64,000 nt of DNA from the IMG/VR virus record IMGVR_UViG_3300025652_000055, positions 3,272 to 67,271 of that record. One strand, given 5' to 3'. Positions 3,083 to 64,000 of the stretch are shown here, one piece after another. Made by a program: the position numbers and the translations under genes. The notes beneath the pieces are model-generated. The model was not told the origin of the DNA. It did no database searches and was given only the letters and a program-made list of their open reading frames with translations. Source of the stretch: a virus. The first letter of the stretch is position 1. Each line of letters starts with the position of its first letter.

Positions 3083-3565
3083 ATGGCATTTAAATTACCA
3101 AATAAAAATATAAAATCAGCGATATCTACAACTGGCTATAAGTCTAATAGTCCGGATGTAGATAACGACGTTAATGTAATACCTAGTAGTAAAATTACTA
3201 TGAAAGGTGTTGACTTTCCTGTTAAAGGTGTAGGTAGCAATGGTGTTACAAAAAACATGAAACCAGGAGAAGATTATGATTTTGGTGATGCTGACTATGT
3301 TGTTGAAACTCCTATAAAGCAGTCTAACAAAAGAACTAAAGGTAAAGGTAGACATTTTAGAAAATCAGAAGAAGGTGCTGGTATGACATCAGCCGGTGTT
3401 GCTTCATATAGAAAACAAAACCCAGGTAGCAAGCTAAAGACAGCTGTAACTGGTAAAGTAAAAGCTGGTAGCAAGGCTGCTGGACGTAGAAAATCTTTTT
3501 GTGCTAGATCGAAAGGCTGGACAGGTGAAAGAGGTAAAGCTGCTAGACGCAGGTGGAAATGTTAA
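3083..3565 (+). CDS. two-part protein with C-terminal DUF6321-like basic domain
   Basis: NPGSKLKTAVTG...RRKSFCARS...RRWKC follows a TPIKQ junction. Confidence 0.6.
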   Translation: MAFKLPNKNIKSAISTTGYKSNSPDVDNDVNVIPSSKITMKGVDFPVKGVGSNGVTKNMKPGEDYDFGDADYVVETPIKQSNKRTKGKGRHFRKSEEGAGMTSAGVASYRKQNPGSKLKTAVTGKVKAGSKAAGRRKSFCARSKGWTGERGKAARRRWKC

Positions 3566-33023: not shown

Positions 33024-36000
33024 ATGCCAGATTATATAGTAGGTGACAGAAAATACACGGAAGAAGAAGCAAACACTGCTGCTTCTGGTTTAGGTATGGA
33101 CATGAGCACTTGGAAACAAACTTTTAACGCCAAGGTTGTGGCGGGAAACCAATTAGATCCTGCAGAAAATGCGGAGGCGAATGCAGGGTCGGAAAACAAT
33201 CAAGCCTCAAACCAAGGAGAATCGGGTTCGTTTGGAAATCCTTCTTCATCGGTATCACTATTGAATAGAGATGAAATAAAAGAAGAAACACCAGAGTGGA
33301 TATCACAAATATACGAGGAAAATCCTTATGATCCATCTGCTCAAGATCAACAAGTTTTAATGGGTGGTGGATTTGAACATAATATAAATTTGCTAAAAAA
33401 AGAGCAGAAGAAATATACAATGTTTGATGTTAAATCTAGTGACATAGACGAAGAAATAAAAAGACTTGAGTTTGAACAAAACAACACAGGTGAAAGAAAT
33501 AGAACAAGAAGATCTAGAAATCATAGAGAAGTAAAGAATAAACTGTCTGAATATGATGATCAAATAACTAGAATATACAGTGACGAAAGTTTAAACATAG
33601 ATGAGCAAAAAACTTTAGAGCTTGCTGTAATAGAGGATAAAAATACTTATTTAAACTTCGGTATATCTAAGGCTGAAAAAAAAGATTACGAAGAAAACTT
33701 AAAGATTTTAGAGAATATATCTAAAACAACAGATAATGAGGCTAATAGTTCTGGCTTTCAGATACACTCTGATAATGAAGAAGAACAAATAGAGTTAACA
33801 CAACAAGTAGAAGACGAGATATTAAATACCGTAGGTAGTGACAGAAGAGCTAAGCAGAGATTAATTGGATCTGTTAGCGACGAAGCTATTACAGCTACTA
33901 TGGGTTTTGAGCAGAAAGAGCAGATAATAAACAATGCTAAAATGCAGGTTATTAGTAAAGCTTCTGATAAAGCTCAAAAAGATATGGCTCGTTTGCAAAA
34001 CGATCTTTATAAAGATTTTGATTCTGAAGATGATTTAACTCAAGCTGCTGTTGATGACTTTAATTTAAAAGCTAAAGAGATACAAGATACGTTTTATAAT
34101 CTAGCTGGTCAATATGATTTTGATTTAGCTACTAAAGCTTTCATGACTACAAACTTTGAAACAACAGCTGAGTTTCAAGAGTGGAGAGATAAGAAAATAG
34201 AAGACGGTGAGTTTGTGTCAAGTGCTGCTGATTTTGGCGCAACAATAACTCAAGGTTTGAGAGATTTTGGTACAGAGTACTTTTATGGAACAGCATCTAT
34301 GGTAAACAGGCTAGCGCTTTATGGTTTAACAAAAGCTGGTGTAGACACTCAAGGTATGTACGATAGGTTAAACTATATGGACGACTTAGTTGATAGTAGT
34401 TTTCTTAAAAACAATACATTTGGGACGTCTGATGTAGGAGGTTCTTTGTGGAAAGATGGTGTTAACGTTAGATCTAGTTTTAAAACTTTAGGTAACATGC
34501 TTCCTTTTACTTTAGCTTTAGCGGCTTCAGTTAAAAAAGGAGACTTACGTAAACTTAAAGACGTGTACAAGCTTTTTGGTAAAAACAAATCTGGATTAAA
34601 ATACGGTAACATTGGCTTAAACGTTCCTAAAATAAAAATAGGTGGTAAAACCTTATTAGAAGGTGGTAGAAAAACTATTGGTGGTATAAACATGAATACC
34701 ATTAGAATGGGCCAAACAGCTTACATGGGTACCATAAGAGATAATTATAATGAAGCTATAGACATGGGCTTGGATGAAGGTCAAGCTTTAGCATATAGTA
34801 ACATGGCATCTTTCGCAACATCCGTTGTTCAAGGTATAATGCCAGACGCTAACTTCTTTAATACAGCTGCGGGTAAAGGATTATTGAATACTTTCAAAGG
34901 TGATTTAAGTAAAGCAGCTAGTAAAAAAGCTATAAAAGAAGTAAGCAAACAATTTGCAAATAATCTTATAGGAGAGATTGGCGAAGAGGAAATGGAACTA
35001 CTTCTTACAGATATGGCTAAATTAACCGTTGGATTATCTAATCAAACAGGGTTTTTAGACGCACAGACTCAGTTCGAAACTTTAATGGGTACACTTATAC
35101 TTTCAGGCTCAACGTCTGTAGCAACATCTACTGTTGGTGGTGGTTACAGCAATGTTAAAAAACAAGTATACTTAGAAGCAAGAGCAAACATTACCGGCGT
35201 TATGGAAACGTTGAAAGCTAACAAAGAGTACAACCAAAATCTATACGACAGAGCTAAAGCTGCTGGTAAACAAGATTTAATGGATAGAGCTAAGCTAGAT
35301 CTTGATCAAGCTAATGCTGCTTTACAACATGGTAATGATATTAAAAACGCTATAAACTTAGGTGGAGAGTTTGTTACTGATAAAGAAATAGATTTATACA
35401 TACAAAAGCAAAAACTACTTGATGCTAAAAAGAATCTAGGAGCTAAAGCTACAGCAACTGTAGAGATGATGATTGATGGTGTTGCTACTACTTTTACTGG
35501 AGATTTACAAGGTATAAACGAAAAGATATCAGAAATAGATGGTGAAATTGCTGGTGGAAGGGTAACCCAAAACAAGGAAGAGATATCAAAGAAAACAACT
35601 GAAGCTTCTGAGAAAACAGCTAAAAAGCTGGGTATTGATATGAATACTTTTGAAGATGACGATGTTTCTGTTGAAGGTAGCAAAACCGCAGACCAAAAAG
35701 TTAAAGATAGAATAGACGAAATAAACGCTGGGTTACCTGAGAGAAACAAAGGTAAAAGCAAAGAAGAACAAGATCAAAAAGTAAACGTAAAAAGAGTAGG
35801 CGACAATGGTTTTGTAGTACAATATAAAGATGGTACTCAGGAAATAATAATAAACAAAACTAAGTCAGAAAAAAATAGTGAAACAACAGTTGCTCAGCAC
35901 GAGGTATTACATAGTGTTTTAAATGAAACACTAATGAAAAACCCTAAAGCAGCTCAAGCTATGGCTGGTGTTTTAAAAGAGCAAGTGGACAGTATGATAG

Positions 36001-39000
36001 CTAAAGGTTATGATCCTAGTTCATATTTGTCGGCTAAACTACAAGCTTACAAGAATAACTCAGCTGATGTTCAAGCAGAGGAATTACTTACTTTCTTTTC
36101 AGATGGTATGGCTCAAGGTTTCATAGGTTTTGAAGAAAACACGTTTACTAAAATAAAAGATGTTTTAAGACAAACGTTTCAAAATTTAGGTATAAAAGGT
36201 ATAGAGTTTAATACAGGTAGAGATGTTTATAACTTTCTAAAAGACTACAACAAGTCAATGGCTAGTGGTAAAGGTATTAAAGGTTCTATATTAGATGTAG
36301 CTAAAAAAGGTGCTAAAGGTAGTTTAGTTAACGGTATAGGATCTCAAACAGCTTTAGAAAGAAAGGTTAACAAATCTTTTGATACAAAAGCTAAAGGCTA
36401 TGGATCTGAAATAGTAAATTTTTATACACCATATATAAAGAAAGCGGTATTTGGTAATAACAAAAGTCTTTACGGTAATAAAGCTTTAGTTGGTCAAGTT
36501 AGAGAAGTTCAAGCTAAGATACTTGACATAGTTAAAAATCACAACAACTCTGATCCTATATCTCTTACAGATAAAATAGGTAGATTATTTGGACCTACTG
36601 GTACTAGTGAAAACACTAAAAGTTCTAAAGATTTATATAGTAGTACTGAAATGATCATGGGACTTGACGAGTCTATGACAGAAGATGATAGAATAGAACA
36701 CATGAGTAACATGTCTGAGTCTAATAAAACTAGACTAGGACAATTAGTTGGTTACGAGTATACTAATGAAGTAAAGAAGAGATTAAGAAAGTTTAGTAAG
36801 ATACCAGGGTTTAAAGCTGTTGAAGAAAGCATTTTAGCTGATATAACTTATGGTACTACAAAACAAGGTAAAAGCGGTAAAGAAGTAAAAGTACAAGGTA
36901 TTGTTGGTATAGTTGAAAGATACAGTGGAGCTATAGAGCTTAACAGATGGATCAATGGTCAGCTAGATAATAAAATACAAGGTATAGTAGAAAGCTACAA
37001 CTTAGGTAAAGAAGTTCAAGAGTTTAGTACAAAAAGTGCTAAAGGTCCAAGTATAAACAAAGGTAAATATACTAATATATTAAAGACAAACGCTGTACCT
37101 AGTTTTGCTAAAAGACAATTAAAGGAAAGTGTTATTAAAGTTGTTAGAGTTTTAAAAACATCTGTATTCAAAGCAACTTCTAAAAACGTAACAATAGCTC
37201 CTTGGATAAGAGAGTTTAAAAAAGAAGTAGGTAAACAGAACGATATAGTTTTTAAAAAAATAATGGGTGGTTTAGCTAATGATAAATTCTCTAAATACTT
37301 ATTAAAAAACAAAAAGGTTATATTAGAAAATATGACAACCACTTGGTTAGGTGGAGCAATACCAGCGGCTGTACAAAAGAAGGTTGATGGTAGATGGACA
37401 CCAGACTGGAAAGGTAAAAAAGTAGACTTTGAGTCTAGCGCAGAGACAGGTAGAACTTCTGGGTTAGAAATGGTAAAAAGAGATACTGATATATCTGATG
37501 AAAAGTTTTTATCTTACTTTGGCGAAGTTGTAGTTAAAGATGGTAAACCTACATTAAAATCTTTAACTAGAGGTAGAAAGGAGTCTTTAGCTAAAGCTAT
37601 GGCTGAAGAAACTGGTTTAGAACTTGTAGCAAATGATTCCGAGGTATTTAATGAACTAACCAGTAATCAAGATAGACTAGGTGTAGTATCAGCTTCTATA
37701 GACATACTTGATATAGGTAGAGATATAGAAAGAGGAAACGCTAAGTCAAACAAGTCACCAGAAGTAGTACAAGAGGCTTTGTTTAACATGATGAATGAAG
37801 CTATATTAAATGGTGGTAATTCAGATTCTTATTTGCTTTACAAGTCAGAGCAACCTAAAGATATACAGGCTTACGCTGAAGAGATTGGCTTAGGTACTTA
37901 TTTTGATGAAGGTAAAACTGGTTATAAAAAACCTTTACTAGAGTGGTCTGATATGCCAGTGCTGTTTGGGCCAGCAAAAGAAATATACAAAAGAACCATA
38001 ACAAACAAAACCAAAGATGAGTCAATGAAACAATTGGCTGATTTTTCAAACGCTTTGATAGACGTATTACCTCCAGATTTAGTTGATGCTGTTGGTAATG
38101 ATATGTTTGCTATAGTTTACGCATACCTAGATGGTGCAGAGAAAAAATCTGACGGTAAGCCAGGTAAGTATAATTATTTAGCTAAAAAAAGAAAAGCAAA
38201 AGCAGATCAAGAATCTGATATAGAGTTAACTTTTAACCCTGCAGACATAAGAATATTTAACTCTGCTAGTGGTGTTATGAAGCAAATAACAACTATACTT
38301 AAAAAAGATATAACAGCAGCTGAAAAGCAGGCTATGGTTGAAGAGAAATTTGGAGACATAATAGCTAAAGCTGAAATAGCGAACATAGAAGCTTTAAAGT
38401 ATATAATGGACAAAGCTACTGAGCTTATAGCTGAAGATCCTTCGCTAGCTCCTGGTTTTATGAGGTGGATGGAAACTTCAACAAACAACGTAAAAGCTCA
38501 AAGAGGTTTAACAAGGTTACCATTAATACAATATGTTGATGGATCAATGGAAGCAGATGAAACTCATGTGTTTTATGATCAAGCTAAGGAATTTGCTATA
38601 GAAAGATCTACAGCTATGTATGATAAGCTTCCAGCTAAAACTAAAAAGGAAGTAACACTACAGCAATTTATAGATGAAAGATTAGAAAAACATCCACCAG
38701 AAAAACATTTAAAGTTCAAGGGTGAGCATGTTGATCCAGCTGCAAACGTTATGCTTGACTTAGCTAAAGTTGCATTAAAAACAGCTGCTAAGATACATCA
38801 AATGGGTTTACTTAACAAGCCTAAGCAATTACGTGCTATAAATACTTTTGCTGGGTTAGAGATGGATAAAATACTACGTACTTATAGTCAAACACTTGGT
38901 TCAGAGTTATTTTCAGCTATTCAAGATAACTCACTAGGTACAACGTCTAAGCTTGGTGACTTTAGAGGACTAACAGTTGATCCTAATTCCTACAACACGT

Positions 39001-41969
39001 TCTTAACGTCGGAAGGCATACAAGCTGTAGAGTATATAAAAAGAGAAAACTTATCTATAGATTTTATAAATAAAATAATAAGTAGAGTAAATGTAGATAA
39101 TTATATAAATAATCAAAATAGGACTGACGCATTAAACAATGCCCTTGACCCTAATAAGAAGGTAAAAGGTATTTCTGTTTTTGATTTTGATGATACGTTG
39201 GCTCAGACCAAGTCTAATGTGCTATACACAATGCCTGACGGCACTAAGGGTAAAATAGATGCTACACAGTTCGCGGCTCAATCGGCTGACTTAGAAGCTC
39301 AGGGAGCTGTTTTTGATTTTAGCGAGTTTAGCCAAGTAATAGACGGTAAAAAAGGTCCTTTAGCTGATTTAGCTCTAAAACGTCAAGGCAAGTTTGGTAG
39401 TGGGGATATTTTTGTTTTAACCGCAAGACCTCAAGCCTCCGATATTGCTATTCAAAAGTTTTTAAAAGAAATAGGTTTAGATCTTAAAATAGCTAATATA
39501 ACAGGTTTAGCAGACGGCACGGCTCAAGCTAAGGCAGATTGGATAGTGGGTAAAGCGGCTGATGGTTACAATGACTTTTATTTTGCTGACGATGCTATTA
39601 AAAATGTCAAAGCAGTTAAAGAAGCACTTAGTGTTTTAGATGTTAAAGGTGATGTGCAACAAGCTATAGTAAAATCAAACAAAGGTAGAAGCCAAGAGTT
39701 TAACGAGATGCTAGAGGCTAGAACTGGTATTGATGCCGTAAAAACTTTCTCTAAAGCAAAAGGAGAAATGTTAGGTAGAGGTAAAGGTAGGTTTAGATAT
39801 TTTCTACCTCCATCAGCAGAAGACTTTATGGGTCTAATGTACAACTTTTTAGGTAAAGGTAAAAAGGGTGATGCAGATAAAAAGTGGATAGAAGATAACT
39901 TAATGAAGCCTTACTCAAGAGGTATTGCTAATATAGAAAGAGCTAAGCAAGCGGTACAAACTTCTTACAACGCTTTAAGATCAGAATTTAAAGATGTAAG
40001 AAAAAAACTAGGTAAGCAAATACCAGATTTAGGTTTTACTTACGATCAAGCTATTAGAGTATACTTGTACACTAAAGCAGGACATAAAATACCTGGATTA
40101 TCTAAAAGTGATCTAAAAGATTTATTAACTATAGTAAGCGGAGATCAAAGAGTTAAACTATTTGCAGACAGTGTTGGTTTAATATCTAATCAAAAAGAAG
40201 GTTACACTGCCCCAGGAGAATATTGGTTGACAGGTAGTATAGCTAGTGACTTAAATGATATAACACAAAAAGTAGGTAGAAAAGAGTTTATAAAAGAGTT
40301 TATAGATAATTCAAAAGAAATATTTAGTGAAGAAAACTTAAACAAGATTGAGGCTGCTTATGGTCAAAACTTTAGAGAATCACTAGAAGACATACTCTAT
40401 AGAATGGAGAATGGTACTAATAGGACTTTTGGTAAAAACAAGCTTGCAAACAAATGGAGTAATTGGTTAAACAACTCTGTTGGTGCTATAATGTTTTTTA
40501 ACATGAGATCTGCTTTGCTACAAACTCTGTCAACTGTAAACTTCGTTAACTGGACAGATAATAACCCTGCTAAGGCCGCGTTGGCGTTTGCAAACCAACC
40601 TCAATACTGGAGAGATTTTGCAACTATATTTAATTCAGATAAATTAAAACAAAGACGTAAAGGTTTAAAGACAGATGTAAATGAGGCTGAACTAGCTAAT
40701 GCAATGGCTGGTAGCAAGAACAAGGCACAAGCTGCTTTTCAATACTTATTAAAAATAGGTTTTACACCTACTCAAATAGCGGATAGTTTTGCTATAGCTT
40801 CAGGTGGCGCTACAATGTACAGAAATAGAATAAAAACATATTTAAAACAAGGCATGGATCAAAAACAGGCTGAAGATAAAGCTTGGGAAGATTTCTCTAT
40901 GTTAGCAGAAGAAACTCAACAGTCATCTGATCCGTCTTTAATATCCGCACAGCAAGCTGGTCCTTTAGGTAGGTTTGTTTTAGCTTTCCAAAATACACCT
41001 ATGCAGTACAATAGGCTTATTAAGAAAGCTGGTAGAGATTTAATAAATGGTAGAGGAGACTGGAAAACTAATGTTTCTAAGATAGCTTACTATGGAGCAA
41101 TACAAAACTTTATATTCTCTGCTATGCAGAAAGCTTTATTTAGTATGTTGTTTGAAGATGAAGAAGAACGATGTGAAGGTTTAGAAGGTAAGAAACTTGA
41201 GGCGTGTCAAAATAAAGAGTGGAAAGTAGATGTTGGTAATAGTATGGCAGACAGTATTCTTAGAGGTAGTGGACTTTATGGTGCTGTAGGAGCAACGCTT
41301 AAAAACGCTATAAGACAATTTAGAAAACAAGAAAATAAAGGATTTACAGCAGATCACACGTACACTATATTAGAATTGGCTAACTTATCCCCACCGTTGG
41401 GTTCTAAGCTAAGAAAAGTATATAGCGCTATACAAACCTATAGATTTGAGAAAGATGTTATAAAAGAAAGAGGATTAAATTTAGATAGCCCTACTTGGTC
41501 TGTAATAGGTAATCTAGTAAGTGGCGGTACAAATGTTCCTTTAGACAGGCTTGTTAAGAAGTTTAACAACATAAATGCAGCACTAGACGAGAGGAACGCT
41601 ATATGGAAAAGAGCTTTCTTTGCATTTGGATGGAATACATGGGATTTAAAAGCTGAGCCTAACGAAACACATGAGCAAATAAAATCAGACGCTAAAGCTA
41701 AAAGAAAAGAAGCTGGCAAGATAAAAGCTAAAGAAACTAGAGAGCAAAACAAAATAAAAGAAGCTCAACGTTTAGCAAACATGGACCCTATAGAAAGAGC
41801 TGAATACGAGGCTGAGAAAAAAAGAAAAAGATCTGAGTCTGCTAAAAAAGGTGCTGAAACAAGAAGAATAAATAAAAGAATAAAAGACTCTATAGCTAGG
41901 TCTTCGATTTTAGAAAGACAAGATAGATTATTAGAAGAGTACAGAAAGAAAAACAAAAAAAACAAATAA
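33024..41969 (+). CDS. giant multidomain virion (ejected) protein with zincin HEVLH, sigma-region-2-like segment and HAD domain
   Basis: 2981 aa; HEVLH at 35898-35912; HAD motifs VFDFDDTL, VLTAR and YFADD at about 39170-39600. Confidence 0.7.
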   Translation: MPDYIVGDRKYTEEEANTAASGLGMDMSTWKQTFNAKVVAGNQLDPAENAEANAGSENNQASNQGESGSFGNPSSSVSLLNRDEIKEETPEWISQIYEENPYDPSAQDQQVLMGGGFEHNINLLKKEQKKYTMFDVKSSDIDEEIKRLEFEQNNTGERNRTRRSRNHREVKNKLSEYDDQITRIYSDESLNIDEQKTLELAVIEDKNTYLNFGISKAEKKDYEENLKILENISKTTDNEANSSGFQIHSDNEEEQIELTQQVEDEILNTVGSDRRAKQRLIGSVSDEAITATMGFEQKEQIINNAKMQVISKASDKAQKDMARLQNDLYKDFDSEDDLTQAAVDDFNLKAKEIQDTFYNLAGQYDFDLATKAFMTTNFETTAEFQEWRDKKIEDGEFVSSAADFGATITQGLRDFGTEYFYGTASMVNRLALYGLTKAGVDTQGMYDRLNYMDDLVDSSFLKNNTFGTSDVGGSLWKDGVNVRSSFKTLGNMLPFTLALAASVKKGDLRKLKDVYKLFGKNKSGLKYGNIGLNVPKIKIGGKTLLEGGRKTIGGINMNTIRMGQTAYMGTIRDNYNEAIDMGLDEGQALAYSNMASFATSVVQGIMPDANFFNTAAGKGLLNTFKGDLSKAASKKAIKEVSKQFANNLIGEIGEEEMELLLTDMAKLTVGLSNQTGFLDAQTQFETLMGTLILSGSTSVATSTVGGGYSNVKKQVYLEARANITGVMETLKANKEYNQNLYDRAKAAGKQDLMDRAKLDLDQANAALQHGNDIKNAINLGGEFVTDKEIDLYIQKQKLLDAKKNLGAKATATVEMMIDGVATTFTGDLQGINEKISEIDGEIAGGRVTQNKEEISKKTTEASEKTAKKLGIDMNTFEDDDVSVEGSKTADQKVKDRIDEINAGLPERNKGKSKEEQDQKVNVKRVGDNGFVVQYKDGTQEIIINKTKSEKNSETTVAQHEVLHSVLNETLMKNPKAAQAMAGVLKEQVDSMIAKGYDPSSYLSAKLQAYKNNSADVQAEELLTFFSDGMAQGFIGFEENTFTKIKDVLRQTFQNLGIKGIEFNTGRDVYNFLKDYNKSMASGKGIKGSILDVAKKGAKGSLVNGIGSQTALERKVNKSFDTKAKGYGSEIVNFYTPYIKKAVFGNNKSLYGNKALVGQVREVQAKILDIVKNHNNSDPISLTDKIGRLFGPTGTSENTKSSKDLYSSTEMIMGLDESMTEDDRIEHMSNMSESNKTRLGQLVGYEYTNEVKKRLRKFSKIPGFKAVEESILADITYGTTKQGKSGKEVKVQGIVGIVERYSGAIELNRWINGQLDNKIQGIVESYNLGKEVQEFSTKSAKGPSINKGKYTNILKTNAVPSFAKRQLKESVIKVVRVLKTSVFKATSKNVTIAPWIREFKKEVGKQNDIVFKKIMGGLANDKFSKYLLKNKKVILENMTTTWLGGAIPAAVQKKVDGRWTPDWKGKKVDFESSAETGRTSGLEMVKRDTDISDEKFLSYFGEVVVKDGKPTLKSLTRGRKESLAKAMAEETGLELVANDSEVFNELTSNQDRLGVVSASIDILDIGRDIERGNAKSNKSPEVVQEALFNMMNEAILNGGNSDSYLLYKSEQPKDIQAYAEEIGLGTYFDEGKTGYKKPLLEWSDMPVLFGPAKEIYKRTITNKTKDESMKQLADFSNALIDVLPPDLVDAVGNDMFAIVYAYLDGAEKKSDGKPGKYNYLAKKRKAKADQESDIELTFNPADIRIFNSASGVMKQITTILKKDITAAEKQAMVEEKFGDIIAKAEIANIEALKYIMDKATELIAEDPSLAPGFMRWMETSTNNVKAQRGLTRLPLIQYVDGSMEADETHVFYDQAKEFAIERSTAMYDKLPAKTKKEVTLQQFIDERLEKHPPEKHLKFKGEHVDPAANVMLDLAKVALKTAAKIHQMGLLNKPKQLRAINTFAGLEMDKILRTYSQTLGSELFSAIQDNSLGTTSKLGDFRGLTVDPNSYNTFLTSEGIQAVEYIKRENLSIDFINKIISRVNVDNYINNQNRTDALNNALDPNKKVKGISVFDFDDTLAQTKSNVLYTMPDGTKGKIDATQFAAQSADLEAQGAVFDFSEFSQVIDGKKGPLADLALKRQGKFGSGDIFVLTARPQASDIAIQKFLKEIGLDLKIANITGLADGTAQAKADWIVGKAADGYNDFYFADDAIKNVKAVKEALSVLDVKGDVQQAIVKSNKGRSQEFNEMLEARTGIDAVKTFSKAKGEMLGRGKGRFRYFLPPSAEDFMGLMYNFLGKGKKGDADKKWIEDNLMKPYSRGIANIERAKQAVQTSYNALRSEFKDVRKKLGKQIPDLGFTYDQAIRVYLYTKAGHKIPGLSKSDLKDLLTIVSGDQRVKLFADSVGLISNQKEGYTAPGEYWLTGSIASDLNDITQKVGRKEFIKEFIDNSKEIFSEENLNKIEAAYGQNFRESLEDILYRMENGTNRTFGKNKLANKWSNWLNNSVGAIMFFNMRSALLQTLSTVNFVNWTDNNPAKAALAFANQPQYWRDFATIFNSDKLKQRRKGLKTDVNEAELANAMAGSKNKAQAAFQYLLKIGFTPTQIADSFAIASGGATMYRNRIKTYLKQGMDQKQAEDKAWEDFSMLAEETQQSSDPSLISAQQAGPLGRFVLAFQNTPMQYNRLIKKAGRDLINGRGDWKTNVSKIAYYGAIQNFIFSAMQKALFSMLFEDEEERCEGLEGKKLEACQNKEWKVDVGNSMADSILRGSGLYGAVGATLKNAIRQFRKQENKGFTADHTYTILELANLSPPLGSKLRKVYSAIQTYRFEKDVIKERGLNLDSPTWSVIGNLVSGGTNVPLDRLVKKFNNINAALDERNAIWKRAFFAFGWNTWDLKAEPNETHEQIKSDAKAKRKEAGKIKAKETREQNKIKEAQRLANMDPIERAEYEAEKKRKRSESAKKGAETRRINKRIKDSIARSSILERQDRLLEEYRKKNKKNK

Positions 41970-44458: not shown

Positions 44459-44910
44459 GTAAACACGTAAGTTATCGCGAAGGCATGTATAGCAGAACAG
44501 CGGATAGACGAGGTATAGACAACACACCTACTGAAGAGCATTTAGCTACAATGAAAATTACTGCTGAAAAAATATTTGAACCTCTTAGAGCTCACGTAGG
44601 AGCTACTATAAAGATAAATTCTTTTTATCGTGGACCTAAACTAAACAAAGCTATAGGCGGGGCTAAAAAGTCACAACATATGAGTGGGCAAGCAATGGAT
44701 ATTGACGATACATTTGGTCACATGTCTAATGCTGATATGTATTATTGGATAAAAGATAACTTAAACTTTGATCAGTTAATATGGGAATTTGGTACAGACA
44801 AAAATCCAAACTGGCTACATGTAAGTTATGTTAACGATGAAGATAATAGAAACAGATGCTTAAAAGCTTATAAAGATTCTAACAACAAGACTAAATATAA
44901 AGTAATATGA
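44446..44910 (+). CDS. endolysin, peptidase M15A family
   Basis: INSFYR..LNKAIGG..SQHMSGQAMD...WLHVSY. Confidence 0.85.
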   Translation: MEKISKHVSYREGMYSRTADRRGIDNTPTEEHLATMKITAEKIFEPLRAHVGATIKINSFYRGPKLNKAIGGAKKSQHMSGQAMDIDDTFGHMSNADMYYWIKDNLNFDQLIWEFGTDKNPNWLHVSYVNDEDNRNRCLKAYKDSNNKTKYKVI

Positions 44911-45155
44911 AAACACCTATGAAAAGAAAAGGTTGTGGACCTCAAGGGTTAGGTTCACCTATTAAACTAGCGCCGATACTTGGTATGGTAGCTAAATCAT
45001 TAATTGCTGGTAAAATTGCAGAAAAAGCGTCACCGGCTAAATTTAAAGGCGCTAACTCTAAAAACTCTGACTGTTGGAAAGGTTATAAAAAACAAGGTAC
45101 AAAACCATCTCCTAGTAAACCAGGAGTAACTGTTAATAATTGTGTTAAGAAATAA
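44907..45155 (+). CDS. small basic SPxK protein with CWKGY...NCVK module
   Basis: TPMK, SPIK and SPAK motifs. Confidence 0.6.
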   Translation: MKTPMKRKGCGPQGLGSPIKLAPILGMVAKSLIAGKIAEKASPAKFKGANSKNSDCWKGYKKQGTKPSPSKPGVTVNNCVKK

Positions 45156-58660: not shown

Positions 58661-59103
58661 ATAGGCCATTCTTTGTAGCCATAATCAGGTGTATTATATC
58701 TTATATCAACATTATATGAAGGTAAAACAAATACGTTCTCAGACGAATAGTTGTCATAACAACTAATCCAAACGTCAGACTTACCTACCCATATTATATA
58801 AGTATAGTGATGGTCAATACTGTCTACACTAGGATAAAGATATTGACTATTGTAGTGAAAATCTGCAACCAAATGCGCAGCTATTCTCGATCCATCACCG
58901 AAATTGTTGAACTTTTTATATTCTTGCATGTAATTCACCCATCTAGATAAGTCAACACCAAGACCTTCAGGATAGCCGTCGTGATGTAAATACATGTTTA
59001 CATAGCTTTTGTCAGCCAGCAAAGATGGTTTACAAGCAAAACCTAGCTCGTTGTTTTCAGCTTCTGATCTGTCAACAACCATTGTTATACTTCTTGTACT
59101 CAT
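58651..59103 (-). CDS. conserved phage early protein
   Basis: MSTRS...YLHHDGYPEGLG. Confidence 0.65.
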   Translation of the reverse strand: MSTRSITMVVDRSEAENNELGFACKPSLLADKSYVNMYLHHDGYPEGLGVDLSRWVNYMQEYKKFNNFGDGSRIAAHLVADFHYNSQYLYPSVDSIDHHYTYIIWVGKSDVWISCYDNYSSENVFVLPSYNVDIRYNTPDYGYKEWPIQK

Positions 59104-59122
59104 AATTATATTTTAAAATTAG

Positions 59123-59195
59123 GTGCGCAGGGAGGACTCGAACCTCCGACCTCTAGCTTATGAGGCTAGCGAGCTGCCTGCTGCTCTACCGCGCA
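59123..59195 (-). tRNA. tRNA with CAU anticodon (Met)
   Basis: Full cloverleaf: TGCGCGG/CTGCGCA, GAGC/GCTC, CTAGC-CTCATAA-GCTAG, GGAGG-TTCGAGT-CCTCC. Confidence 0.9.
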
Positions 59196-59207
59196 ATGTG
59201 TATAGCA

Positions 59208-59477
59208 TTAGTCAAGTAATACCATATATGCTTTTACATTATTTTTCTTAAACCAGTCTAGTGCTTTATCAAAATGATTAATCTGCTGTTTAGTAGGCTT
59301 AATTCCCATAGCCCACACGTGATTACAACCCATAATGAAGTCGTATAAAGATAGCTCTATGTTATTAAGTTCATAAGTTTCACCACTAAAAGGGTTAGTA
59401 ACTTTATCACCTTCGTTATACACAGAGCCATCAAACCACTTAGGTATTTTTTGTTCAACACTATTCATCTTCAGCAT
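59208..59477 (-). CDS. hypothetical protein
   Basis: ORF with VTNPFSGE...AYMVLLD. Confidence 0.6.
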   Translation of the reverse strand: MLKMNSVEQKIPKWFDGSVYNEGDKVTNPFSGETYELNNIELSLYDFIMGCNHVWAMGIKPTKQQINHFDKALDWFKKNNVKAYMVLLD

Positions 59478-59817
59478 CTATTACATTAAAACAATCTTCT
59501 ACATAGTCACATATACATTCTTCTAAGTCAGACTCACCGTCGAATTCTATATTAGATAATCTTAGTTGGTTATCGTAGTCAATTTCAAAGTCATAAGTAT
59601 AAGAGTCTATGTTATCAAAACTTACCTGTTGTACTGCTTGATGTACAGCTTCTCTTAACTCATCTATCTGAGAAGGATAAAGCTTAGGTTTACTAATGTC
59701 AGCTAGTTTTTTCTGAGCTTCTATTAGATCGTCTTTTAGTACTTTTGCGTTTAACTCTACTGAGTTTAAAGTTGTTTCCAGTTTGTCAACTTTTTCTTGT
59801 AATTCTATTTTAGTCAT
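59461..59817 (-). CDS. hypothetical protein
   Basis: Coiled-coil N-terminus, acidic C-terminus. Confidence 0.6.
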   Translation of the reverse strand: MTKIELQEKVDKLETTLNSVELNAKVLKDDLIEAQKKLADISKPKLYPSQIDELREAVHQAVQQVSFDNIDSYTYDFEIDYDNQLRLSNIEFDGESDLEECICDYVEDCFNVIDAEDE

Positions 59818-60029
59818 AGTTCTTTATTTATTATATTATCTATTTTATTTATTAAGTAATCTTTGTCTGACATATTGCCATAATATTCTTGTAAATGCCA
59901 AGCTATATCGTGTAGCTTGTTTTCTAAAGCTGTAATATATATTTTATCATCTTGTTTAATAGGCATTTGTCTTGGATCTATATCACCAGACTCTACTAAT
60001 TCGTGGTATTTTTTTATTGTATCACTCAT
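59814..60029 (-). CDS. hypothetical protein
   Basis: 71 aa, coupled to its neighbours. Confidence 0.55.
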   Translation of the reverse strand: MSDTIKKYHELVESGDIDPRQMPIKQDDKIYITALENKLHDIAWHLQEYYGNMSDKDYLINKIDNIINKEL

Positions 60030-60268
60030 TAGCTTTTGTCTATAATTTTATCACCATACATAAAGCTATATGAATCTAGCTCCCAGCTGTTAACTCCGCC
60101 ATATGTCAATAGGTCTCTAACCTCGTCAATAGTCAAGGCTGACCATATGTATTTTGACATTAGTGTATATTTTAATCTTTTAGCTGTAGCGTATTCTCTA
60201 GCGCTAGCTCTTAATTTTAGCTTTACATCTGGTAAAAGCTCGTCGTAAATTGTTTTTAAATCTGCCAT
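60029..60268 (-). CDS. hypothetical protein
   Basis: Likely start MADLKTIY just downstream of the promoter motif. Confidence 0.6.
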   Translation of the reverse strand: MADLKTIYDELLPDVKLKLRASAREYATAKRLKYTLMSKYIWSALTIDEVRDLLTYGGVNSWELDSYSFMYGDKIIDKS

Positions 60269-60279
60269 TTGTTTTATTA

Positions 60280-60310
60280 TATTATCGGTTTTTATTCGTA
60301 TTAAATTTGT
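60280..60310 (-). promoter_or_regulatory. putative early promoter, copy 2
   Basis: ACAAATTTAATACG-AATAAAAACC-GATAATA. Confidence 0.75.
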
Positions 60311-60315
60311 ATTAG

Positions 60316-60393
60316 TGGAGGTGGACAGAATCGAACTGTCTTCCGTAATAGTTCCATATAGGCTTTCTATCACGTCAAAACCAGGTCACCCCC
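60316..60393 (-). ncRNA. mini-tmRNA-like RNA (tRNA-like domain only)
   Basis: GGGGGTG/CACCTCC-A acceptor with G3.U70; ACCTGGTTTTGAC without a D-stem; helix GTGATAG/CTATTAC; T-arm GACAG-TTCGATT-CTGTC. Confidence 0.75.
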
Positions 60394-60397
60394 ATTA

Positions 60398-60502
60398 CGT
60401 AGTTATCTCCGTTTCCATGAGTTCATAACGATCCCTCACCACTTCAACGATCGGACTTCCACCGTGCATGCAGTTAATTACTCTGCAACCCGTGATACTA
60501 CG
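60398..60502 (-). ncRNA. putative structured RNA, module A
   Basis: Termini pair (CGTAGTATC / GATAACTACG); internal TGCAG/CTGCA and CGATC/GATCG stems. Confidence 0.45.
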
Positions 60503-60503
60503 A

Positions 60504-60591
60504 CTTATAAAATTAAAGGATCTTCGTCAGCTTAACCACGTATCTCCTCGCTGAGTTCCTACAGCCATACTGAGCCCTTCACATTTATAAG
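60504..60591 (-). ncRNA. putative structured RNA, module B
   Basis: Termini CTTATAAA/TTTATAAG plus an inner GAAGGG/TCCTTT pairing. Confidence 0.35.
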
Positions 60592-60595
60592 ATTT

Positions 60596-60686
60596 TAGTA
60601 ACTAGCGAAGGAATCGAACCTTCATACTCGTCAGTAGTAATGAACTCTGTTTAACTTAATAACACCTGTTACATCCATACCTAGTT
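60596..60686 (-). ncRNA. tRNA-like element (acceptor stem plus T-arm)
   Basis: AACTAG../GCTAGTT-ACTA; GAAGG-TTCGATT-CCTTC. Confidence 0.6.
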
Positions 60687-60863
60687 TACCGGCTATTGTG
60701 TGATCACTAATCGTATCTTTCGCCATCGGTTTTCGTATTTATATAGAGCCATATACCGTAAAACTCTAAGCTAGCTATTCACTTATGTAATTTAGGTACC
60801 ATTTATCGTGGTATCTTTACGGTATACACCCACCTAAATCCTAATTAAGCTACTCGTCTAGCG

Positions 60864-61052
60864 TCATCTTCTGCGCTGCGATCTATGAATTATAGCGCTA
60901 AGTTCTTGACTTACTATTTGAATCGTGTTACCTGTTTTGTGGTAAGTAATAGGAACATAAGAATGTTTTTTTACTTCAGAACAAGGAGGACATGTTTTAT
61001 ATCCTAGATTTAATCGATAAGGGTGGACTTCGTCGCCGCATTTACAGTACAT
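60864..61052 (-). CDS. DksA/TraR-type C4 zinc-finger protein
   Basis: CKCGDEV...RL....TCPPC. Confidence 0.6.
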   Translation of the reverse strand: MYCKCGDEVHPYRLNLGYKTCPPCSEVKKHSYVPITYHKTGNTIQIVSQELSAIIHRSQRRR

Positions 61053-61079
61053 AGTTTATTATTTTAATTGTTACATTTA

Positions 61080-61110
61080 TATTATCCGAAAGTTATCGTA
61101 TTATTTTTGT
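61080..61110 (-). promoter_or_regulatory. putative early promoter, copy 3
   Basis: ACAAAAATAATACG-ATAACTTTCG-GATAATA. Confidence 0.75.
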
Positions 61111-61301
61111 AAAGGAAATCTTTCTTGTGATAAATACATGTACTCAATAGCTTTTGCCATAACATAATCGTGTAAGTCATTATAAGAATCACCTTCAACG
61201 TGTTGGTCAGCGATCTGCCAGTGTATACTGTCTCTCATTAATTCCATAGAAACATCAGCAATTGCTTGTGATATTTCATCTATTTCTTTCATTCTACTCA
61301 T
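61101..61301 (-). CDS. hypothetical early protein
   Basis: 66 aa ORF. Confidence 0.55.
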   Translation of the reverse strand: MSRMKEIDEISQAIADVSMELMRDSIHWQIADQHVEGDSYNDLHDYVMAKAIEYMYLSQERFPLQK

Positions 61302-61491
61302 AAAATCTATCTTTTATATTTAATAAAGCTAATTTATAGCCAAAGTTTTTAGCCATTTGCATTAATAAGAAATCATTAGTGCCATGATTAGCTTGTGTAA
61401 ATTGTTCTAGTGTTTGTTCGTTAGGTGTGGCTACAATGCCCTTGTCTAACATATGTAGCTCGTGCTCTACAAAATCTTTTACTTTTTCCAT
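61294..61491 (-). CDS. hypothetical early protein
   Basis: 65 aa ORF. Confidence 0.55.
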   Translation of the reverse strand: MEKVKDFVEHELHMLDKGIVATPNEQTLEQFTQANHGTNDFLLMQMAKNFGYKLALLNIKDRFYE

Positions 61492-63275: not shown

Positions 63276-63287
63276 AGTATTATTTAT

Positions 63288-63344
63288 TAGTAGACATAGT
63301 GAGAGTCGAACTCACCGCACATTATTGTACACGCCAATATGTCT
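63288..63344 (-). ncRNA. minimal tRNA-like element
   Basis: AGACATA/TATGTCT-ACTA perfect 7-bp stem; GTGAG-TTCGACT-CTCAC; only 22 nt between the arms. Confidence 0.65.
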
Positions 63345-63402
63345 TTTGTTCTATCCAGTTAAGCTCGTTGCCCGCAGGTTCGGATAGTCACCTTTTTGTA
63401 CA

Positions 63403-63522
63403 CTAGTAGAAATCGTAGTAGATATCCATAACTTTAGACTTTTGCTCGTCAGTTAATTTAGTGTAATGTTTGTCGTAGAGATTCCACGAGATTTTTAGTA
63501 ATGTATAAGAGAATGTTGACAT
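63403..63522 (-). CDS. small hypothetical protein (39 aa)
   Basis: MSTFSYTLLKISW...; AATACT-ATG leader. Confidence 0.5.
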   Translation of the reverse strand: MSTFSYTLLKISWNLYDKHYTKLTDEQKSKVMDIYYDFY

Positions 63523-63743
63523 AGTATTATTATTTAAGTTATTATTTAGTTATTTTATATTTAATATAATTAGTATTTAATAGTTTAGTTATATTATTAG
63601 TTTGATATTGAGATAATATAATTATTTTATTGTTTAAAGATTTAATATTATAATGGTTATTAGTTAGAATATTAATAGTTTTTTTGATTTGATATTTGTT
63701 AGTTGATAGTTTGATAATATATAGTTTTTATTGGTTACATTTA

Positions 63744-63774
63744 TATTATCTGATTTTAACCGTATTTTATTTGT
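63744..63774 (-). promoter_or_regulatory. putative early promoter, copy 5
   Basis: ACAAATAAAATACG-GTTAAAATCA-GATAATA. Confidence 0.7.
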
Positions 63775-63777
63775 AAA

Positions 63778-63957
63778 TTAATCACATATACCACATGGAA
63801 TGGAATCCATCGCTGAGTAATCTACTTGACCTGTTATCATCATGAAGATGATGAAAGCTATTCCGCCAAAGGCTAAGGTTGCAAGTGATGCTATAAATCC
63901 TTTAATAGCGATGTCTGTTACTTTGATAAGTACGTAGTGTATAAATTTTCTGTTCAT
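63778..63957 (-). CDS. small membrane protein (59 aa)
   Basis: One TM helix; C-terminal CGIC. Confidence 0.55.
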   Translation of the reverse strand: MNRKFIHYVLIKVTDIAIKGFIASLATLAFGGIAFIIFMMITGQVDYSAMDSIPCGICD

Positions 63958-63980
63958 ATTATTATTTTATTATTAGTTAT

Positions 63981-64000
63981 TAGTAGACACCGGTGGAATC
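63981..64000 (-). ncRNA. 3' end of another tRNA or tRNA-like element (truncated by the window)
   Basis: ...GATT-CCACC-GGTGTCT-ACTA, same spacing as the element at 63288. Confidence 0.5.

Follow-up and report, generated by a model that had tools for sequence, protein, structure and literature searches.

What a densely packed phage genome encodes where it leaves some 550 nucleotides (nt) free of genes is the question raised by IMG/VR virus record IMGVR_UViG_3300025652_000055, the genome of a marine phage. The window analyzed here is the 64,000-nt stretch from base 3272 to base 67271 of this 67,271-bp record, which CheckV rates as complete, and all positions given below are those of the window. 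An earlier note, made from the letters of the sequence alone, had proposed a tandem array of structured RNAs at about 60313-60860. This is borne out by an Rfam match to transfer-messenger RNA (tmRNA) and by comparison with relatives: an array of abutting structured RNAs is real at 60862-60313 on the minus strand. The explanation favored here, to which as a whole a probability of roughly 0.55 is given, is that this 550-base non-coding stretch encodes six or more small structured RNAs in a row, transcribed together, in which the tRNA-like domain (TLD) of tmRNA would act against ribosome rescue and in which scaffold frames would carry exchangeable working arms.

Since every gene listed as an open reading frame (ORF) between 45 and 64 kb lies on the minus strand, the array is to be read on this strand from 60862 to 60313, and in this order its units are E1, E2a, E2b, a tRNA-like unit termed the mimic, B, A and a mini-tmRNA (Table 1). 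The minus strand of 60374-60863 contains no ORF of at least 40 amino acids (aa), and the GC content is 0.425-0.435 across 60300-60599 compared to about 0.30-0.34 in the flanks (window about 33%). The stretch had been described as the only long one without a credible coding sequence; the coding sequence is indeed missing, but the gap is not unique, because the same test finds 44542-45029 (488 nt) and 63276-63777 (502 nt) just as free of ORFs. In a blastn search with "distant" settings, 60250-60900 found no match in 50,697 GenBank phage records, and the DNA ligase of the window is at most 37% identical to those of isolates. The relatives used for comparison are 53 syntenic loci that were recovered via the ligase on contigs of uncultured viruses, which are 19-72 kb long.

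A tmRNA reduced to its tRNA-like domain

The last unit had been read as a mini-tmRNA at 60316-60393, and Rfam family RF00023 (tmRNA) matches the minus strand of 60393-60313, scoring 66.1 bits where the cut-off is 47 (E 1.4e-23). The match covers both ends of the 374-position model, while 304 inner positions are replaced by 11 nt. The unit of 78 nt consists of an acceptor stem (GGGGGUG/CACCUCC, 7 bp) with G3:U70, the discriminator A73, a helix-2 stub with a small hairpin, and a T arm; with the D-loop analogue all parts of a TLD are present. Bacterial one-piece tmRNA shares these 5' and 3' parts with it above the gathering score, but the window unit lacks the mRNA-like domain with resume codon, tag frame and stop as well as the four pseudoknots PK1-PK4, and ARAGORN calls neither a tmRNA nor a tag peptide.

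A scripted list, for which G3:U70 was required, contains 79 distinct TLD units of 59-138 nt; RNAalifold gave 14 pairs for 58 of these, 10 of them with compensatory change. As this requirement biases the list, an own model, R1, was built and used to search the window and the 53 related loci. It found 44 TLDs, 38 of them distinct, in the window (82.3 bits) and in 41 of these loci. Pairing is 100% in the acceptor and T stems of the 38 distinct TLDs, and in their alignment, which is fitted to model R1, 90.3% of the cells are paired compared to 69.2% after shuffling (none of 500 shuffles as high) and 43-53% after sliding. Pair 3:70 is G-U in 37 of the 38 and A-U in one, an extra copy in locus L028, while the neighboring pair 4:69 covaries (A-U in 16, C-G in 15, G-C in 7). 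G3:U70 is the mark by which alanyl-tRNA synthetase (AlaRS) recognizes tRNA-Ala and tmRNA, and a constant wobble at 3:70 beside a covarying 4:69 is the pattern predicted by an alanine identity element. A pattern search for a TLD with a short linker returned 53 stretches among 2.9 million viral contigs of IMG/VR and only three in 185,579 prokaryote species, each represented by one genome.

Judged from these sequence features, the TLD would be best understood as a functional SmpB ligand that can be charged but carries no message, and its likely effect would be to disturb trans-translation or to use it in a tag-less form. There is a precedent: in an excerpt of Hudson, Lau and Williams (2014; PMC4131195) the tmRNA of Mycobacterium phage DS6A is listed as "TLD only" after the tmRNA Website, and a DS6A-like molecule is stated to strongly inhibit tmRNA, perhaps by SmpB titration (citing Mao et al., 2009). 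By its description there, rather than by a comparison of sequences, the DS6A molecule resembles the window unit in being phage-borne, with an acceptor stem containing G3:U70, A73, a T arm and no tag frame or other coding part. In contrast to DS6A, the mini-tmRNA of the window belongs to a clade-wide gene, present in 41 of 53 loci, its type of helix-2 stub bears exchangeable arms, and it stands at the end of an array of several RNAs. As far as these excerpts go, it is the only array unit with a precedent. The earlier note had suggested an RNA-based cassette for host takeover or anti-defense; for the mini-tmRNA this is, by analogy to the inhibitor described in the excerpted source, a reasonable hypothesis. 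No phage-encoded SmpB was found. A host lookup by the TLD 5' end gave eight matches scattered over unrelated phyla, from which no host was derived.

Two loci, L028 and L037, contain two TLDs each. At L028:3703-3881 the two stand in tandem without a spacer after CUA; the first has A3-U70 and 38.1 bits with the Rfam tmRNA model, and may be a copy that lost alanine identity. A 37.5-bit tRNA match of 157 nt in L028, in which the 5' side of E1 runs into the 3' side of the following TLD, was read as a chimeric alignment and rejected.

Mosaic composition of the array

When the array was compared with the 53 related loci by BLAST, it turned out to be a mosaic: each module occurs in a different subset of relatives, and units are gained, lost and reordered independently. 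Locus L090 has mimic, A and TLD without B, L108 has E2a, B, A and TLD without the mimic, L121 has E2a, another unit, E2b, mimic, B, A and TLD, and in L120 A follows directly after the zinc-finger-like gene that precedes the array. The breakpoints in L090, L108 and L120 coincide with the borders that had been drawn for A (60398-60502), B (60504-60591) and the mimic (60596-60686) from the sequence of the window. The terminal stems and the tight spacing described earlier were also found, with spacers of 6, 1 and 4 nt. The module that had been taken as a single unit C is split by the comparison into E1 (60862-60771), E2a (about 60767-60727) and E2b (about 60726-60690).

Folding of the single modules is more stable than that of shuffled sequence for the mini-tmRNA (z -2.91) and for B (Table 1), while A (-0.4), the mimic (+0.25), E1 (-0.7) and E2a together with E2b (+0.29) behave like shuffled sequence. 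Because folding energy supports two modules only, the case for the array, including A and E1, rests on the comparison with relatives. The absence of covariation in homologues had been named as the observation that would speak against structured RNAs; covariation is seen for the TLD, E1 and A, and in B for two of 19 pairs. The Rfam scan yielded tmRNA above cut-off and no other family: 59000-61400 searched against Rfam 15 at E up to 10 has nothing beyond tmRNA and a 15.8-bit tRNA trace on the mimic, with no match to GOLLD, ROOL, YrlA, RNase P RNA, self-cleaving ribozymes or riboswitches, and none of these families reaches the gathering score in 13 related loci either. The sole such trace is YrlA with 18.6 bits against 69, spanning the two adjacent TLDs of L028.

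Table 1. Units of the RNA array and flanking features, ordered by position in the window.
Feature	Position	Strand	Description
Next promoter motif	60278..60302	(-)	14 nt past the mini-tmRNA; serves the downstream gene, ATG at 60268
Mini-tmRNA	60313..60393	(-)	tRNA-like domain (TLD) only; last array unit; Rfam RF00023, own model R1
A	60398..60502	(-)	Three-helix frame; 12 distinct copies
B	60504..60591	(-)	Conserved core, own closing stem, variable apical arm; fold z -2.81
Mimic	60598..60686	(-)	tRNA-like unit, not cloverleaf; 26 instances, 18 distinct, 17 aligned
E2b	~60690..60726	(-)	Linker or hairpin closed by GGC...GCC; weakest element
E2a	~60727..60767	(-)	Short conserved hairpin AGAGU...GCUCU, A-rich tail ending AAAACCG
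E1	60771..60862	(-)	Conserved hairpin frame; 39 instances, 36 distinct
Zinc-finger-like ORF	60864..61052	(-)	62 aa, four cysteines; array begins 1 nt past its stop codon
Promoter-like phage motif	61078..61102	(-)	AATACGA-N10-GATAATATA, upstream of the zinc-finger gene

Conserved frames of the array

E1 and A are new conserved RNAs with compensatory base changes. E1 is composed of helix P1, an internal loop with AGUA opposite GAA, helix P2 (GCUUA/UAAGU) and a hypervariable arm between AUUAGG and ACA. P1 is counted as 5 bp, because its two outermost pairs are weak (2:107 is unpaired in 21 of 29 sequences). In an alignment of 29 sequences, which leaves aside L012, L018, L040, L045, L085 and L110, which their long arms extend to 116-185 nt, and L115 for an arm equal to that of L030, 89.1% of the cells in P1, P2 and the first six arm pairs are paired compared to 75.6% after shuffling; none of 500 shuffles was as high, slid controls gave 21-40%, and 13 of 18 pairs show compensatory change. 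The AGUA/GAA loop reads like a sarcin-ricin or loop-E motif. A contig of RNA library X17 matches 60771-60861 exactly and continues with different sequence, which places the border where the comparison has it.

In A, helix P1 is followed by AUCACGRG, by P2 with the loop AGUAAUUAA, by the invariant GCACGGUGGAAGUCCGA, by the arm-bearing P3, by RAGAUAAC and by the 3' strand of P1. The invariant 17-mer GCACGGTGGAAGTCCGA was found in 17 IMG/VR stretches, corresponding to 12 distinct units of 78-144 nt. In P1 and P2, 87.8% of the cells are paired compared to 75.6% after shuffling (none of 500 as high), with 9 of 13 pairs compensatory; the copies of L109 and L111, in which the register of closure is shifted, were counted as unpaired. 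At the base of P3 the pairs CGUU/AACG, UGUU/AACA, CGUCA/UGACG and CGCAU/AUGCG were read by eye, because MAFFT misaligned the 3' side of this helix. The stretch GGAAGUCCG in A presumably resembles RNase P RNA, and A was considered as a mini RNase P RNA; this was rejected, as no RNase P family matches at E up to 10 and 105 nt are far too short.

B is conserved but barely covarying, with two compensatory pairs among the 19 that RNAalifold predicts, and it is the least supported of the frames. It occurs in seven IMG/VR stretches and in seven distinct copies including that of the window, and its core, GUGAAGGGCUCAGUAYGG ... UUAAGCUGACGAAGAUCCUUUAAU, is almost invariant. The closing stems differ between copies when read by eye (CUUAUAAA/UUUAUAAG, CUUAUG/CAUAAG, GAUUA/UAAUC, GCAC/GUGC). 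E2a was found in seven distinct copies (window, L002, L030, L108, L117, L121 and L128), in which the fifth pair of the stem is U-G, C-G or U-A. It possibly forms an H-type pseudoknot between the loop CGGU and the tail ACCG, which covariation leaves unsupported, because this pairing is invariant and was read from the sequence only. E2a, with its hairpin and A-rich tail, was also considered as a preQ1-type riboswitch; it has no Rfam match and is kept as a pseudoknot candidate. E2b is identical in L121 and L132 and partial in L009.

The mimic had been called a tRNA mimic, and the T arm and an acceptor-like stem are indeed kept, but the unit fails the tRNA models: for RF00005 it reaches 15.8 bits against 29 (E 9.4), a single central arm takes the place of the D and anticodon arms, and ARAGORN at default settings calls no tRNA. 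With introns allowed and thresholds lowered, ARAGORN gave only implausible tRNAs with introns of 91-338 nt, which were rejected. The unit contains the acceptor-like stem AACUAG/CUAGUU, nearly invariant across copies, the variable central arm, the linker GACGRGUAU, a T arm with GGUUCGAUUCC, and A-C-UAA. A T arm with a GGUUCGAAUCC-type loop stacked on the acceptor stem is present in the 18 distinct copies; it is 5 or 6 bp long and has compensatory variants (GAAGG/CCUUC, GAGGG/CCCUC, UAAGG/CCUUA and GAGAG/CUCUC). The window has two copies of the T-loop motif GTTCGATTCNNNC, compared to 0.03 expected, and both are inside the array. The mimic is tRNA-like in the manner of the TLD and not a tRNA.

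Further T-arm elements were observed outside the array. On the minus strand, 63291-63344 is a tRNA-like element of 54 nt with the acceptor AGACAUA/UAUGUCU, a 22-nt linker, the T arm GUGAG-UUCGACU-CUCAC, A and CUAA, located directly before the start of the next gene, and many related loci have a like element (GTGAG TTCGATT CTCAC ... A CTAA) at a distance of 2-4 kb upstream of the array. Positions 63980-64000 (minus strand) contain the 3' part of another one (..GAUUCCACC GGUGUCU A CUAA), the same as at L002:619; as the record ends inside this element, its remainder may be at the other end of the record. CUA(A) stands in the place of CCA after the TLDs, the mimics and the true tRNA-Met and tRNA-Gln of the clade (e.g., window 60313-60315, 60595-60597 and 59120-59122) and may be a 3'-processing signal.

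Hairpin arms shared between frames

The variable inner parts of the units were compared across classes (78 TLD, 32 E1, 19 mimic, 6 A and 5 B arms). BLAST at E up to 1e-3 gave 36 cross-class pairs, comprising 30 between E1 and TLD, three between A and E1, two between B and E1 and one between A and TLD. The best match is that of the TLD arm of L013 with the E1 arm of L018 (61 nt, 100% identity). The B arm of the window is the E1 arm of L030 (25 nt, 96%), the A arm of the window type is the E1 arm of L015 (22 nt, 100%), an E1 arm of the window type is found in the TLD of L110, and the A arm is carried in a TLD of L137. Inner hairpins thus move between different frames. Because the same hairpins are exchanged between unrelated frames, they point to being selected, functional parts, and the hypervariability among close relatives suggests a function that would be driven by conflict. 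No description of such an exchange was found in the literature searched, while a catalogue of about 10,000 viral structured RNAs, seen in excerpt, may list some of the modules (Fremin et al., 2023; PMC10690425).

Three matches to the 19-nt core of the A arm were found in prokaryote genomes, all on contigs of metagenome-assembled genomes (MAGs) of 609-2018 nt, and two of these are plainly fragments of phage arrays. The MAG contigs L136 and L137 (609 and 716 nt), which are assigned to an "Aliivibrio sp." MAG, contain the end of the zinc-finger gene, E1, mimic, TLD and tRNA-Met; their place in an Aliivibrio bin is more likely a binning artefact than a host clue. Antisense targets inside the phage were also considered and rejected: there are 30 complementary 11-nt words with runs of at most 13 nt, which is about the number expected by chance in a rough estimate made without a shuffle control.

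Probable transcription of the array

The earlier note had assumed one transcript starting from a promoter at 61080-61110 and reading through the zinc-finger gene, which fits the promoter-like motif, the missing terminator and the RNA-library contigs without being proven by them. The motif AATACGA-N8-12-GATAATATA has three exact copies in the window, all on the minus strand (61102-61078, 60302-60278 and 58652-58628), with none expected. The copy at 60302-60278 includes TTAATA-17-TATAAT, 10 of 12 matches in a simple promoter scan, and an element of about 40 nt at this position is repeated several times per locus in the relatives. A motif of the AATACGA type is also located directly before the B unit in L130 and L133. 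The transcript with the array probably starts in the region of the copy at 61078-61102. A generic promoter scan found 12 sites with 13.0 +/- 3.3 expected, so that its count is uninformative, and no terminator-like site was predicted on the minus strand between 62000 and 59000.

Contigs of metatranscriptome libraries from three studies bridge the zinc-finger gene and the array without differences (X15, 60627-61047; X16, 60705-61097; X19, 60666-61032), and a contig of X17 joins the downstream gene to the mini-tmRNA (60027-60403, 4 differences). Parts that are not covered, such as 60313-60514 in X15, are not evidence of absence. The two tRNA-like units, with their sites for RNase P and 3' trimming, and the independent presence of the units in relatives suggest that the transcript would be processed into several small RNAs. 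The 3' end of the zinc-finger gene precedes the array at least in the window, L108, L110, L113, L115-L118, L120 and L121. Its ORF and the neighboring ones have no Pfam or PHROG family above cut-off, and the zinc-finger-like protein is a candidate partner of the array RNAs.

Alternative explanations

Several observations weigh against the explanation of a co-transcribed array that acts on ribosome rescue. The mini-tmRNA ends with CUA and not with CCA (among the 79 distinct TLDs the trailer is CUA in 46 and CCA in 12), and its charging therefore needs trimming and CCA addition. No SmpB, AlaRS or defense system of a host could be matched, and the core of the A arm has no host look-alike among prokaryote genomes, where it matched phage fragments only. 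Some units have no obvious route of release, because no tRNA-like border is present at the B/A or the E1/E2 junction. The RNA-library evidence consists of contigs only, and DNA carry-over is possible. B has only two compensatory pairs in 19, the alignment of A contains only 12 related sequences, for which kinship alone can beat the shuffle control, and A, mimic and E1 give no signal in folding energy. The whole stretch (566 nt) has a fold z of -0.2, and besides tmRNA no known RNA family in Rfam matches any unit.

The strongest alternative is that the tRNA-like units and the stem-closed modules are punctuation only, acting in cis as signals for RNase P and 3'-end formation or as protective ends of early mRNAs, without any function in trans. 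This would suit the place of the array between a gene and the next promoter, the like elements with T arm, acceptor, A/C and CUAA before genes in other gaps (63344-63291 and 63980-64000) and 2-4 kb upstream in many related loci, and the CUAA that also follows the genuine genes for tRNA-Met and tRNA-Gln in this clade. However, punctuation needs an acceptor stem and a T arm alone, yet G3:U70 is kept in 37 of 38 TLDs beside a covarying neighbor and the tmRNA-specific positions score 66 bits; TLD-only RNAs also recur in 53 viral stretches beyond the array context. Furthermore, E1, A and B are not tRNA-like and are nevertheless conserved with covariation (for B in the two pairs mentioned), and the exchange of arms is left unexplained. 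This alternative is therefore considered unlikely.

Even less probable is one large, unprocessed, multi-domain RNA of about 550 nt in the manner of the ornate RNAs GOLLD and ROOL, which are located near tRNA genes in phages. The modules abut with spacers of 1-6 nt, no internal promoter or terminator is present, and RNA-library contigs cover several modules, all of which speak for a single RNA. It is opposed by the gain, loss and reordering of modules in close relatives, which fit a fixed tertiary architecture poorly, by the lack of any match to GOLLD, ROOL or another Rfam family of this kind at E up to 10, and by the fold z of the whole stretch. Decaying remnants, that is pseudogenes of captured tRNA and tmRNA genes together with neutral junk, are very improbable: the mimic fails the tRNA models, CCA is not encoded and the content differs strongly between relatives, but the helices of TLD, E1 and A are kept by compensatory changes, the mini-tmRNA is retained in 41 of 53 loci and the genome is otherwise densely packed. 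That the stretch encodes small peptides, for which a 31-aa minus-strand ORF at 60726-60631 and a few others of 25-37 aa could be named, can practically be dismissed, as this ORF crosses E2b and the mimic, its frame is shifted by a length difference of 2 nt in L121, and the units, with their compensatory pair changes, have the behavior of RNA.

Comparison with known systems

The tRNA cluster of phage T4 contains small stable RNAs (species 1 and 2, RNA C and D) with a function that is not known. Similar to the array, these are structured RNAs other than tRNAs that are co-transcribed and processed with tRNAs, an analogy that is not based on a comparison of sequence or structure. Neither exchangeable arms nor an accompanying mini-tmRNA are known for the T4 RNAs. 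An analogy from engineering are the tRNA scaffolds for the expression of recombinant RNAs, reportedly introduced by Ponchon and Dardel, in which a foreign hairpin is said to replace the anticodon arm, resulting in stability and correct processing. In these a frame carries a foreign hairpin, as the array frames do; in contrast, the array is natural, several unrelated frames are involved (TLD, mimic, E1, A and B) and the inserts are exchanged between them.

RNA anti-CRISPRs were reportedly described by Camara-Wilpert and colleagues in 2023 as solitary repeat units. At the array no CRISPR repeat or link to Cas was seen, and no test aimed at one was made. According to an excerpt of PMC11662646, tmRNA fragments of about 90 nt including the TLD co-purify with AcrIIIA1, and t(m)RNA fragments associated with the Acr bind RNase R. 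Going by this excerpt, the theme shared with the array would be small structured RNAs or t(m)RNA pieces directed against host immunity, with the difference that the AcrIIIA1 fragments are cut from host RNAs, while those of the window are phage-encoded.

Genomic surroundings

The window encodes, among others, a DNA ligase, a sigma factor, a primase-helicase, a ribonucleotide reductase and a protein of 2981 aa (33024-41969, plus strand), for which the sole PHROG match is weak and polynucleotide-kinase-like (residues 2037-2218, E 1.6e-4). At 63522-63780 about 250 nt are non-coding and very AT-rich (GC 0.13-0.22), with dense short ACTAA/TAATA-like repeats, downstream of a look-alike of the promoter motif near 63740-63770. 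This region may be a replication origin or a regulatory region.

Proposed mode of action and significance

In the favored explanation, the array and the zinc-finger gene would probably be transcribed early from the sigma-70-like phage promoter, and tRNA-processing enzymes of the host would probably cut the transcript at the two tRNA-like units. The mini-tmRNA would then most likely bind host SmpB, along with AlaRS and EF-Tu, whereby trans-translation would be blocked or diverted during infection. E1, the mimic, B and A would serve as constant frames closed by terminal stems, each presenting a swapped inner hairpin. The frames would provide scaffolds for stability and processing, and the exchangeable arms would be the working parts, acting as decoys or binding sites for host or defense factors.

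The frames with their exchangeable arms look like carriers, and a more far-reaching and only tentative proposal is that the array constitutes a combinatorial RNA display: a few nuclease-resistant frames, expressed early, would present fast-exchanging payload hairpins from a shared pool against host factors. Such a display would be the RNA counterpart of the protein anti-defense islands of phages, with payloads that may bind or decoy defense or translation factors, and a payload on the TLD frame could even be brought by it to SmpB or to stalled ribosomes.

The array may be an RNA toolkit for the takeover or disarming of the host. To our knowledge, counter-measures of phages are known almost only as proteins. 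Here a clade keeps a dedicated, fast-changing locus of small RNAs, of which the sole interpretable member would be aimed at ribosome rescue, a core system of the host, and the remaining ones represent new conserved RNA folds. For E1 and A, surveys with covariance models and structure work can begin, and the frames would double as natural scaffolds for RNA expression. If the mini-tmRNA titrates SmpB, these RNAs would be natural inhibitors of trans-translation, which is an antibiotic target.

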